From NCBI GenBank assembly GCA_041630155.1, contig JBFKLX010000005.1, positions 1 to 57,392 of the forward strand: a DNA stretch of 57,392 bases, written 5' to 3'. Positions within the stretch are counted from its first letter, which is position 1. Each line of letters begins with the position of its first letter. This DNA comes from Acidobacteriota bacterium. Its GTDB lineage: Bacteria; Acidobacteriota; UBA6911; RPQK01; JANQFM01. Below are positions 9,498 through 11,919 of this stretch, in pieces. A model generated the notes under the pieces. It ran no database searches, had not been told where the DNA came from, and worked only from the letters and a program-made list of their open reading frames with translations. Made by a program: the position numbers and the translations under genes.

Positions 9498-9753
9498 GGC
9501 GGCTCCATTTTGACTCGGAGGGAACCTCAGCGAAAGAGCCCGACGGCCGGGCCCTGGTGGTGGGGGGCGGGCATGGCGAGCAGCGGTCTCCCCGGGTGTC
9601 GCTCTGGTAGATTCGAATTCGGCTTCGAGATCACAGGGAGGCTTGTTGCGATGGGTCGAGTCGGGCTCCCCACTTCGAAGCAGGCCCCGCGCATTGCCCG
9701 CCGCTTCGCGAGCCCTGAGCCTTCGGGTTAGAATCATTCCTTTGCGAGGCTCT

Positions 9754-10374
9754 ATGAATTTGAATCAATCCGCGTCGACCGACTTCGTCTTCGACCTGGG
9801 TGGTGTGCTCATCGATTGGAACCCGCGCCATCTGTACCGAAAGCTCTTCGCCGACGAGTCCGACATGGAGGCTTTCCTGGGACGTGTCTGCACCCCCGAG
9901 TGGAACAGCCGGCAGGACGAGGGGCGTTCGCTGAACGAGGCCACCGAAGAGCTGGTCCACCGATTCCCCGAACAGGAAGCGCTGATTCGGGCCTACTACC
10001 AACGCTGGGAAGAGATGATCGGGGGGGAGATCAGCGGCACCGTCAAGATCCTGAAACGCCTCCGCGAACGGAGCCGCACTCTGTACGCCCTGAGCAACTG
10101 GTCGGCTGAGACCTTCCCGCGCGTGCGGAGCCGCTTCCAGTTTCTGCAATGGTTCGACGACATTCTTCTTTCGGGGGCTGCCGGTGTTCGAAAACCGGAC
10201 GCGGAAATCTTCCAGCAGTTTCTGACGCGGATCGACCGGCGCGCGCCCGACTGTCTGTTCATCGACGACAGCTTGGAAAACGTCGAAGCCGCCTGCAGAC
10301 TCGGCTTTCAAACCATCCACTTCGCATCGCCGGAGCAGCTCGAAGGAGAACTGGTAGGGCGAAAACTACTCTGA
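9754..10374 (+). CDS. HAD-superfamily phosphatase (sEH-N-like subfamily)
   Basis: FDLGGVLIDW, LSNW, RKPD and FIDDSLENV motifs I-IV. Confidence 0.9.
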   Translation: MNLNQSASTDFVFDLGGVLIDWNPRHLYRKLFADESDMEAFLGRVCTPEWNSRQDEGRSLNEATEELVHRFPEQEALIRAYYQRWEEMIGGEISGTVKILKRLRERSRTLYALSNWSAETFPRVRSRFQFLQWFDDILLSGAAGVRKPDAEIFQQFLTRIDRRAPDCLFIDDSLENVEAACRLGFQTIHFASPEQLEGELVGRKLL

Positions 10375-10438
10375 GTTCACGCTCGAGTACGCCCTACGTT
10401 CCAACCTGTGCCTCGAGCCTTCTTCCGAATTTCTGAGA

Positions 10439-10641
10439 GGCCCCATCCCAGCTGGGGGAAGGGACGGGGCCGGAGGACAAGGTAGGGGCGTTGAGTATGA
10501 AGATTATTTATAAGGCGCGACGGAGACCGAAGCCGAAACGCGAAAATCGGGATCGCGGGGGAGGGGGAGCAACTCCGAGTATTTCACCCAGCTCCGATCT
10601 CCGTCTTCCTTAACACCCGGTCAGCCTTGGCCAACCAGATG
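10439..10641 (-). ncRNA. Candidate structured small RNA (~200 nt, three hairpins, C-rich loops)
   Basis: Three stems at 10614-10641, 10511-10612 and 10439-10471 rely on G-U pairs available only on the minus strand. Loops include UCCCCCUCCCCC and UUCCCCCAGCU. A promoter lies directly upstream and the element sits between convergent genes. Confidence 0.7.
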
Positions 10642-10656
10642 CGAATAAATTAACAT
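10639..10656. promoter_or_regulatory. Rex/CRP-like operator overlapping the -10 and start site of the sRNA
   Basis: ATGCGAATAAATTAACAT versus the Rex consensus TTGTGAANNNNTTCACAA. Confidence 0.5.
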
Positions 10657-10676
10657 CTCTCGCGCACCCAAGTCAA
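10647..10676 (-). promoter_or_regulatory. Sigma70-type promoter of the candidate sRNA
   Basis: TTGACT-N18-TAATTT with an extended -10 TG, in an AT-rich island; the predicted start (~10640) coincides with the base of hairpin 1. Confidence 0.65.
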
Positions 10677-10681
10677 CAAAA

Positions 10682-10699
10682 ATGTGAAATATTTCGCAT
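10682..10699. promoter_or_regulatory. Rex/CRP-like operator upstream of the -35
   Basis: ATGTGAAATATTTCGCAT, an 18-bp palindrome with one mismatch. Confidence 0.6.
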
Positions 10700-10803
10700 A
10701 AATTCTTGGGGGCGCCGTCAATTCCCCGTTCTCGCCTGCAATGACGGCACTTTCGGGACTGGCCGGCCAGGTCTCAGTGCACGGCGCGTCATGAGGCTCC
10801 AGC

Positions 10804-10860: not shown

Positions 10861-11919
10861 CTACGCCCCCTCCGCCACCTGCAGGGCCTCCCGGGCCACC
10901 ACTGGAATCAACTGGCCAAAGGCTGCAAAACGGGGGTCGGAGGTCTGTCCCCGCCGGAAGCGAAAGTAGATCTGGGCGATGATGACGGCCAGCCTGAACA
11001 GCCCCAGGCAGTGATAAAAGCGGGCGTGCCGAAGATCCCGGCCGCTCAGGCGTTCGTACAGTTCGAGCAATTGCGACCGGTTCCAAAAGCCTTCGGACGG
11101 CATCATGGCCATGGCTCGCAACTGTGCTGAGTCTGCGGGTTCCGACCAGTAGGCCAGCAGCGCTCCAAGGTCGGAAAGGGGGTCTCCCAGCGTGCACATG
11201 TCCCAATCGAAGACGGCCACGACTCGGCCGGGATCGCCGGGCTGGACCATCAAGTTATCGAGTTTGAAATCATTGTGAACCAGGGAAGAGTCCGAGGCCG
11301 GCGGCAGGTTCTCGGAGAGCCATGCCGAGCAGGCGTCCATCTCGCTGAGCGGTTCGGCGGCGGCCTCGAGCCACCTCCGAGTCCAGCCTTCGACCTGGCG
11401 CTCAATGAAGCCTTCAGGCTTGCCCAGATCGTCCAGTCCCAGCGACGCATAATCGACCGCGTGGAATTCGACCAGGGTTTCGATCAGGGCCCGGCTGATT
11501 TTCTGACCCGCTCGGGGATCGGCGGCGAAGGCGTCCGGCATGGTTTCGCGCACCACGATTCCCCTGCGCCGCTCCATCACGAAGAAGGGGGCACCGATGA
11601 CCGCCGGGTCTTTACAATAGAGAAATGCCCGAGGGGCCGGGCGAAAGGCCCGGTGCAGCACCGAGAGCACCCGGTATTCCCGGTGCATGTCGTGCGCCGA
11701 CGGGGCGACGGGTCCCAGGGGCGGGCGCCGCAAGACGTACTCGTGCCCGGGGTAGTGCAGCAGATAGGTGAGGTTGGCCTTGCCTCCCCCGAACTGCCGA
11801 ACGGTCGGGGTGGTGACCGCGCCTTTCAGCCGTCCCTCGAGACAGCGCTGCAGCCGCTGCGCGTCGAAGGCCTCCTCCGGCCGCACCTCAATCGTGTCGT
11901 CTTCCCTCCGATTCGGCAT
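10861..11919 (-). CDS. Phosphotransferase (APH/choline-kinase fold; ACAD10/11 kinase-like, LvaA-like)
   Basis: QFGGGKANLTY, YVLRRPP, AHDMHREYRVL, LVHNDFKLDN and FDWDMCTLGDPLSDLG motifs. Confidence 0.9.
   Translation of the reverse strand: MPNRREDDTIEVRPEEAFDAQRLQRCLEGRLKGAVTTPTVRQFGGGKANLTYLLHYPGHEYVLRRPPLGPVAPSAHDMHREYRVLSVLHRAFRPAPRAFLYCKDPAVIGAPFFVMERRRGIVVRETMPDAFAADPRAGQKISRALIETLVEFHAVDYASLGLDDLGKPEGFIERQVEGWTRRWLEAAAEPLSEMDACSAWLSENLPPASDSSLVHNDFKLDNLMVQPGDPGRVVAVFDWDMCTLGDPLSDLGALLAYWSEPADSAQLRAMAMMPSEGFWNRSQLLELYERLSGRDLRHARFYHCLGLFRLAVIIAQIYFRFRRGQTSDPRFAAFGQLIPVVAREALQVAEGA

Follow-up and report, generated by a model that had tools for sequence, protein, structure and literature searches.

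A structured small RNA family with a C-rich apical loop and a dyad-embedded promoter in one order of Acidobacteriota

In the RsaE/RoxS small RNAs (sRNAs) of Firmicutes, conserved and unpaired C-rich motifs are directed against ribosome-binding sites, and a repressor that reads a physiological signal stands over the RNA. The alphaproteobacterial cuckoo (CcsR-type) sRNAs carry anti-Shine-Dalgarno motifs of the CCUCC type in their loops, IsrR is a further example of an sRNA with C-rich loops, and MicA, RybB and CpxQ are sRNAs of envelope stress. 6C, RsaE, cuckoo, Acido-1 and 6S all have families in Rfam. Here we describe a candidate non-coding RNA gene of about 200 nucleotides (nt) on the minus strand of a contig from an Acidobacteriota bacterium (JBFKLX010000005.1, assembly GCA_041630155.1), running from about 10640 to about 10439. 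We define "the window" as the whole 57,392-nt stretch of this contig that was analyzed, and "the sequence-only reading" as an earlier interpretation of the locus made from its letters alone. Judged by analogy, the window RNA appears to work most like the sRNAs with C-rich loops (6C, RsaE/RoxS and LhrC), and it is a member of none of these families.

The comparison with each described system brings out both likenesses and differences. Toward RsaE/RoxS there is no homology by Rfam; no Rex gene was found in the window's own genome, which is 91% complete, and the dyad at the promoter of the window RNA resembles a Rex- or CRP-type site in outline only. Cuckoo sRNAs are tandem, multicopy, short hairpins; the window RNA, by contrast, is single-copy, measures about 200 nt, is built around one long rod and has no match in Rfam. 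It resembles 6S RNA in its length, again about 200 nt, in having a long rod and in the strength and conservation of its promoter, but it lacks the closing stem, the central bubble and any match to the 6S model. For the 6C sRNA of M. tuberculosis, direct binding to mRNAs through C-rich loops, with no chaperone, has been demonstrated (PMC6486639). The window RNA resembles this actinobacterial RNA (6C/B11) in being a small RNA of a high-GC organism with C-runs in its hairpin loops. The two do not match in sequence or structure: the window RNA consists of a 5' hairpin, a rod of about 90 nt, a linker and a terminal hairpin, comes from another phylum and has a dyad promoter. LhrC of Listeria is reported to be induced by cell-envelope stress (PMC4132741). 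The likeness to LhrC would lie in forming the non-coding arm of an envelope-related regulon; LhrC is multicopy and under two-component control, whereas the window RNA is single-copy and would answer to a putative BlaI-type repressor and BlaR1-type sensor-protease.

Structure, homologues and conservation of the RNA

The RNA family to which the locus belongs is real, well supported and new. Folding gave the first line of evidence. The minus-strand RNA (211 nt) has a predicted energy of -97.1 kcal/mol (z = -6.21) and none of 200 shuffled sequences folded as well, while the plus strand reached only z = -1.01, where 26 of 200 shuffles did as well. These values bear out the sequence-only reading, which had proposed a strand-specific, structured RNA of about 200 nt. 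The layout that it gave, with a promoter, hairpin 1, a rod, a linker and an 11-bp terminal hairpin, can be read in the sequence as described, and its claim of more than ten G-U pairs agrees with the 13 found among the 62 pairs of the minimum-energy fold. It erred in giving the rod 19 contiguous pairs: in the predicted rod the lower stem runs for 18 pairs without a break, is interrupted by a 3-nt bulge on the 3' side and continues for 6 more pairs.

All parts of the RNA lie on the minus strand, and their pairing is that of the minimum-energy fold. Hairpin 1 (10614..10641) is a 12-bp stem closed by the loop CAAG, CAUCUGGUUGGC-CAAG-GCUGACCGGGUG. The rod (10517..10605) consists of the lower stem of 18 + 6 bp and an apical stem-loop, and a weak outer extension, UAAGG/CCUUA, carries its span out to 10612-10511. 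Both the fold and conservation define the apical stem-loop, UCGGAGUUGC-UCCCCCUCCCCC-GCGAUCCCGA (10547..10578), whose loop UCCCCCUCCCCC (10568-10557) is unpaired and has the core CCUCC. The linker that follows (10472..10510) is unpaired and poor in G, with 15 C, 12 U, 10 A and 2 G among its 39 nt; it holds UUCAUACU and CCUUGUCCUCC and ends with the latter. The terminal hairpin (10439..10471 including its loop) pairs 11 bp, GGCCCCGUCCC/GGGAUGGGGCC, around the loop UUCCCCCAGCU; it has no U-tract and is probably the 3' end or terminator of the RNA. The 87 bases that remain unpaired in the predicted fold comprise 38 C, 25 U, 17 A and 7 G.

Homologues were found by several methods. In what follows G000 is the window's own genome, of family f1, and other codes beginning with G, f, g and L stand for relatives, families, genera and loci. 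BLAST against 40 relatives identified homologues in the same genus (G001), in the same family (G002) and in another family (G016), together with shorter matches to the apex in genus g15. A covariance model made from four sequences (model R1) matched 11 of the 76 genomes of the order. A second model, R2, which covers the rod and apex and was built from 16 sequences, matched 13 of the 137 genomes of the class and 4 of its 22 families: both genomes of f1 plus the window's own, 8 of 10 in f14, the single genome of f15 and the single genome of f5, with none in the other 18 families. Model R2 found one copy per genome, except for a weak second match in G002. An exact-pattern scan of one genome per species (185,579 species) gave 12 places, of which 11 are family members, all of them in metagenome-assembled genomes (MAGs) titled Acidobacteriota bacterium; the match in a Myxococcales MAG (L036) was rejected as a chance event, having no promoter and no model match and lying in apparently coding sequence. 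The same pattern occurred at four places in metagenome contigs, three of them true members, and the match at L047, again with neither promoter nor model match, was likewise attributed to chance. On this sequence evidence the RNA family is narrow, being spread over five genera and four families of one Acidobacteriota order.

Substitutions among the homologues follow the predicted structure. Compensatory changes were present in 12 of 37 predicted pairs in an alignment of four sequences. When 15 distinct sequences were aligned by fitting them to the model, both sides had changed in 21 of the 37 pairs, and 89.1% of the cells were paired, compared to 76.0% in shuffles, none of 500 shuffles being as high; sliding the partners by 1-3 columns reduced the paired fraction to 30-47%. 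Because an alignment fitted to a model leans toward that model, the count was repeated on an alignment of the rod and apex made with MAFFT only (16 sequences, 21 pairs), in which 90.6% of cells were paired, as against 29-46% after sliding. Nine of 12 outer rod pairs are compensatory in the MAFFT-only alignment, and for hairpin 1 the model-fitted alignment of 15 distinct homologues has changes on both sides in 8 of 10 modelled pairs. Covariation in homologues, which the sequence-only reading had proposed as a check, was therefore found for hairpin 1 and for the rod.

The apex of the rod is nearly invariant. Across 16 sequences, five of the nine pairs of the apical helix never vary, and compensatory changes number zero. 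The apical loop and its flanks are identical in the first four homologues but for one base in G002, which reads GCGAUGCCGA. In the wider family the loop core is CCCCCUCCCC(C), preceded by U, A or G and followed by ...GCGAUCCCGR; it is kept in all 16 sequences with small changes of length and base, the loop being 10, 11 or 12 nt long. On these alignments, no part of the RNA is more conserved than the C-rich apical loop. Toward the 3' end, the linker motif CCUUGUCCUCC is common to the window RNA and G001, motifs like UUCAUAC are found in G001 and L046, with a looser version in G016, and hairpins of other sequence occupy the position of the terminal hairpin in G001, G016 and L046.

Searches for known families and repeats gave no other identity for the locus. 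There was no match to Rfam 15 at the gathering score anywhere in the window, and at E values up to 10 the region 10300-10800 produced one chance-level match to a long non-coding RNA and nothing else; a search of 12 homologous or related loci returned two tRNAs only. The possibly new family of the sequence-only reading is thus absent from Rfam 15. An identity with 6S RNA was rejected, since the bona fide 6S RNA of the genome lies elsewhere (G000:C4:20777-20953, locus L021; RF00013, 72 bits), the window has no match to the 6S model, and the fold has no stem closing the 5' and 3' ends. A multi-copy miniature inverted-repeat transposable element (MITE) had been raised by the sequence-only reading as a possibility that would remove the novelty. 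The window's own assembly (5.7 Mb in 396 contigs) has one full copy, with only the promoter part recurring, and each relative's genome has one strong match, so a MITE or other repeated element was rejected as well. Second copies and antisense partners were sought in G000, and the search gave short, chance-level matches only, the two that were inspected lying inside coding sequence.

Several copies depart from the common form. Genus g15 has longer RNAs, to which two to three hairpins are added. In one folded g15 copy the unpaired segment AAGGAGGUUAUG resembles a ribosome-binding site followed by a start codon at a spacing of only 2 nt (e.g. L054:1565-1590 and L026); no conserved open reading frame (ORF) follows it in the g15 copies, the frame being 4 amino acids (aa) long in some and 12 aa in others. 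Judging by complementarity, the segment could pair with the CCUCC of the apical loop. The g15 copy of G034 (L014/L031) is missing about 40 nt that span the -35 element, the downstream dyad (O1, below) and the 5' half of hairpin 1, whereas the upstream dyad (O2) and the remaining RNA are intact; this copy may be inactivated or may be an assembly artefact. At L013, in the 2.5-Mb genome G029, the rod and apex are kept, the loop is altered to CCCCCUCUCCCC and the O1 region is degenerate.

The promoter, its dyad and the genes that share it

The RNA is preceded by promoter elements that are intertwined with a 16-bp dyad of consensus TGYKAA-N4-TTMRCA. The -35 hexamer TTGACT (10671..10676, minus strand, like all elements here) is identified by its sequence and by the line-up of promoters described below. 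An 18-nt spacer separates it from an extended -10 element, TG-n-TAATTT, in which the TG stands one base upstream of TAATTT (hexamer 10652-10647). One copy of the dyad, O1 (TGTTAATTTATTCGCA, 10640..10655), takes in the extended -10, the discriminator and the predicted start site, an A at 10640. A second copy, O2 (TGCGAAATATTTCACA, 10683..10698, about -58 to -43), lies upstream in the opposite orientation, at a fixed distance from the -35 hexamer, and is a candidate operator. The sequence-only reading had named a sigma70 promoter, TTGACT-N18-TAATTT; the elements and their spacing are present as it gave them, but this is not a plain sigma-70 promoter, being embedded in two copies of the dyad. A scan with a promoter consensus made no call at the locus, because TAATTT matches only three of the six positions of TATAAT. 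What argues for a promoter is the extended -10 together with its conservation in homologues. We infer that transcription starts at the A that closes the dyad, position 10640 in the case of the RNA, because the ATG of an apparently leaderless mRNA on contig C58 of G000 begins at the same dyad A.

Conservation of this arrangement is striking. Thirteen promoters of the sRNA and four of a set of sibling RNAs from family f12 line up without gaps as the O2 box TGCGAA-W4-TTMRCA, six bases, TTGAC, and then O1, TGYTAATTTNTTMGCA, which in all 17 stands directly before the transcript start GCAUC. The -35 sequence TTGAC is kept across the 17 promoters, with the one-base variants TCGAC in G043 and TTGAA in G006, and the 17-18 nt spacer between it and O1 is not conserved. 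In some copies the symmetry is complete: O1 is the perfect palindrome TGCTAATTTCTTAGCA in the g15 copies G039, G023 and L048, and O2 of G042 is the perfect palindrome TGCGAAATATTTCGCA.

The f12 siblings are two paralogous RNAs per genome (loci L065 and L069 in G013, L066 and L058 in G022, and L064 in G028), and neither model R1 nor model R2 detects them. They resemble the window RNA in the O2, -35 and O1 order of the promoter and in the 5' start GCAUCU, and the one copy that was folded (z = -5.4) has the C-rich segment CUUCCCCUC in an unpaired region. They differ from it in being about 230 nt long and multibranched, with a closing stem that joins the ends, a terminator with a U-tract and two copies per genome.

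The dyad is rare, and its occurrences are not confined to RNA promoters. With up to one mismatch allowed, there are 11 distinct sites in the 5.7 Mb of G000, two of which are those at the RNA promoter; five other genomes had 2-7 strand matches each, and the reversed control had none. In the order as a whole the dyad was found in 22 of 76 genomes, against one match in each of two genomes for the reversed control. These genomes cover all of the sRNA-bearing families, f12, four of the five f9 genomes and one f6 genome, and no dyad was found in any of 15 genomes of f3 or 15 of f7. The promoter-plus-start pattern, which is more specific, occurred in 14 of the 76 genomes of the order and not in the control. 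G031 (the f6 genome) and the four f9 genomes have the dyad without a detected RNA; these lineages may carry further diverged sibling RNAs.

Several of the remaining sites in G000 point to a regulator. Contig C172 (265-484) has two divergent dyad sites, one of which is also on C333 (106-121) (loci L088 and L091). They precede a Penicillinase_R (BlaI-family) gene that is followed by a Peptidase_M56 (BlaR1-like) gene, with a gene for a PD40 beta-propeller protein on the other side. The BlaI-like protein of G000 is encoded at 134-586 of C333. The same divergent pair, with the dyad and with the same Pfam families, is present in G042 (C1:3881866-3882034), G023 (C1:766356-766526) and G016 (C31:46857), and sequence likeness indicates the same arrangement in G001 (C96:4094-4262). 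Wherever both promoters matched the pattern, both have the dyad, the sites being 86-204 bp apart. The dyad also precedes a gene for a 1898-aa alpha-2-macroglobulin-like protein (G000 C193:294-6078, locus L089), as it does the orthologue in G042. The other genes of G000 behind the dyad are three for paralogous exported proteins that belong to no Pfam family and share the motif ..IFP.V.NG...FQTT...NLS.., one for an exported protein of 454 aa and one for a small membrane protein that has a multihaem cytochrome as its neighbor. These loci are C58:25289-26206, C319:4348-4673, C371:583-1544, C10:518-1898 and C24:29516-31034.

The dyad that overlaps the promoter of the RNA is thus shared with the promoter of a Penicillinase_R and Peptidase_M56 operon. 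Autoregulation by a repressor whose operator lies over its own promoter is the usual arrangement in the BlaI family. Because the dyad stands at the blaI-blaR1-like promoter and BlaI proteins are usually autoregulated in this way, we infer, with good reason, that O1 and O2 are operators of a BlaI-like protein whose regulon includes the RNA. The set of genes suggests, as far as their sequences go, a repressor-controlled envelope regulon with the RNA as its non-coding arm. A regulator other than a BlaI-like protein is possible. Rex is an unlikely candidate: for all the likeness of the dyad to TGTGAA-N4-TTCACA, a search of G000, at 91% completeness, turned up no Rex DNA-binding domain.

Proposed action of the RNA and competing explanations

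The best explanation overall, to which we would give an even chance, is that the locus is a non-coding RNA gene of a new family, controlled by a BlaI-like repressor and acting in trans through C-rich segments. A promoter of the sigma-70 type with an extended -10, placed inside two dyads (O1 from -10 to +1 and O2 from -58 to -43), would drive the RNA, and a dimeric repressor, most likely the BlaI-family protein of the dyad-bearing blaI-blaR1-like operon, would bind O1 and O2. Inactivation of the repressor by the membrane sensor-protease would release the RNA together with a small set of exported and envelope proteins. The C-rich apical loop with its CCUCC core, the linker ending in CCUUGUCCUCC and the loop of the terminal hairpin would then pair with G-rich ribosome-binding regions, and the pairing would lower translation of the mRNAs, as the C-rich loops of 6C, RsaE/RoxS and LhrC do. 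Exposed and conserved C-rich segments are indeed present, CCUCC being the complement of GGAGG and C outnumbering G by 38 to 7 among the predicted unpaired bases. By analogy with these sRNAs, action of the C-rich loop in trans on ribosome-binding regions is plausible.

A fuller version of the pathway is put forward tentatively, and we think it somewhat unlikely to hold in every part. It would be of the BlaR1/BlaI type: an extracytoplasmic cue would lead the M56 sensor-protease to destroy the BlaI-like repressor, which would free the two dyad operators and release an envelope-defence set (the alpha-2-macroglobulin-like protein, the PD40 protein and the exported family) along with the sRNA, and the sRNA would stop translation of other mRNAs through its anti-Shine-Dalgarno-like loop.

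A number of observations weigh against a BlaI-controlled, trans-acting RNA. Since the -10 element falls within the dyad, some of the dyad's conservation reflects promoter function. The operators of staphylococcal BlaI and MecI are of the form TACA/TGTA, and the dyad is unlike them. In G013 the exact matches to the dyad are the two sibling sRNA promoters only, and no blaI site appears at that stringency. A terminator scan found no site at the locus, in keeping with the missing U-tract after the terminal hairpin; termination of the RNA by Rho would likewise agree with the G-poor linker and the missing U-tract. Start regions and the interior of genes are barely separated by the duplex energies of the apical segment, the mean being -22.0 kcal/mol for 4368 crudely called start regions and -20.1 kcal/mol for internal coding windows. 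Among candidates linked to the regulon, the G-rich leader of the alpha-2-macroglobulin-like gene comes out best, in 14th place among the 4368, and its G-runs are complementary to the loop in three f1 genomes but not in the G042 orthologue. Pairing with the blaI leaders was rejected, since the match of 7 nt seen in G000 is not kept in G001, G042, G023 or G016. A genome-wide count of loop complements beside start codons was uninformative without gene calls, no conserved target emerged from the scans of start regions and leaders, and a look-up of sequencing runs gave 11 holders of the DNA type and none of RNA. Finally, both strands of the apical stem are invariant, which goes beyond what a loop seed would need, and recognition by a protein would fit the alignments equally well.

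This last point bears on the alternative that survives best, which we consider unlikely and yet a serious contender: that the RNA binds a protein, sequestering it or serving as a scaffold, with the apical stem-loop as the recognition site and the rest as structural support. An apical helix that shows no compensatory change in 16 sequences, in a molecule whose other helices covary freely, is what such a site would look like; the sequence GCGAUCCCGRUUUUC 3' of the loop is conserved too, and G000 has genes for an Hfq-like protein and for CsrA. Yet no protein gene is linked to the RNA, because synteny changes between families, and the loop has no known protein-binding motif. A loop that can be 10, 11 or 12 nt long also suits a seed for base pairing better than a tightly defined site for a protein.

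The control of the RNA could be explained differently as well. If the 16-bp motif were simply a strong promoter peculiar to this lineage, with no dedicated repressor, the RNA would be a constitutive, highly expressed housekeeping RNA. The motif does include TG-n-TAATTT and the start site, every occurrence examined faces a gene, and an UP element could account for the A/T-rich box at -58 to -43. We nonetheless regard this as a distinctly poor prospect: 11 sites in 5.7 Mb are too few for a general type of promoter, the dyad symmetry is perfect in several copies, O2 is placed where a -10 function is impossible, and the motif recurs at blaI-blaR1-like operons.

A sponge for CsrA, of the CsrB/RsmZ kind and working through GGA motifs in the 5' arm, seems very improbable. 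CsrA is encoded in G000 (85 bits), and the window RNA has four GGA motifs (AAGGAAG, ACGGAGA, UCGGAGC and UCGGAGU); in most homologues hairpin 1 is succeeded by a GGA element rich in purines, which reads AAGGAGG in the g15 copies and is unpaired in the one folded g15 copy. The GGA motifs of the window RNA, however, are mostly paired, lying in stems of the predicted and covarying rod and not in hairpin loops, and the most conserved element of the RNA is C-rich, not GGA.

The neighboring genes bear on whether the RNA is a gene of its own. Upstream of it is a gene for an APH-family phosphotransferase (10861-11919, minus strand; Pfam PF01636, E = 5.9e-52), and on the other side a gene for a HAD-family hydrolase (9643-10374, plus strand; Pfam PF00702 and PF13419) converges on it. 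The APH-family kinase and HAD hydrolase that flank the window copy are replaced by FabH and a GWxTD protein in G001, by ApaG and a TIM-barrel protein in G002, by an extracytoplasmic-function (ECF) sigma factor and a Na:alanine symporter in G016 and L046, and by a CitMHS_2 transporter and a DsbH-like thioredoxin in four g15 copies (G042, G045, G043 and G034). The downstream gene is convergent in the window and in G002 and lies on the same strand in G001, G016, L046 and the g15 copies. This last orientation, and the position of the window RNA on the strand of the APH-family gene, 185 nt downstream of it, would suit a cis element, either a 3' untranslated region or terminator of the APH-family gene or a leader or riboswitch of the downstream gene. 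Such an origin has a slighter chance still, given that the RNA has its own conserved promoter, that the terminal hairpin separates it from downstream genes, that the flanking genes vary between families and that the next gene is convergent in the window and G002.

The sequence-only reading had also noted a 27-aa ORF beginning with GTG (10504..10587, minus strand). The ORF is present and listed as such, and it is not regarded as a gene: as a feature it fails, its start, length and frame not being conserved. Where a type A copy has a start ahead of the apex, the frame is 27, 57, 68, 55 or 98 aa long; L045 has no such start in this frame; and in G006 and the g15 copies the loop differs in length by a number of bases not divisible by three, which shifts the frame. 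A small-protein gene in this or another short frame can hardly be entertained, for although the frame ...ELLPLPRD... is open in five type A copies, it is open only because the nucleotides are invariant, its starts and lengths wander as described, and the ribosome-binding site proposed for it is buried in the predicted rod. Because the neighbors differ between families and the ORF is not conserved, we read the locus as a free-standing non-coding RNA gene.

Implications for Acidobacteriota

In a literature search at the level of listings, neither a described regulatory sRNA of Acidobacteriota nor an sRNA linked to BlaI came up. If a BlaI-controlled RNA acting through C-rich loops is the correct reading, it would, as far as the listings searched extend, be without precedent both as an sRNA linked to a BlaI-family repressor and as an Acidobacteriota sRNA with a proposed function. 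It would also be an independent case of C-rich loops used as seeds against ribosome-binding sites in a high-GC phylum.

Acidobacteriota are a major phylum of soils and sediments. The family described here combines a structure that covariation supports with a precisely delimited promoter holding two candidate operators and with a small, conserved set of envelope genes that would be co-regulated with the RNA. It may thereby give an entry point, in uncultured lineages, to post-transcriptional control and to BlaR1/BlaI-like signaling outside beta-lactam resistance.

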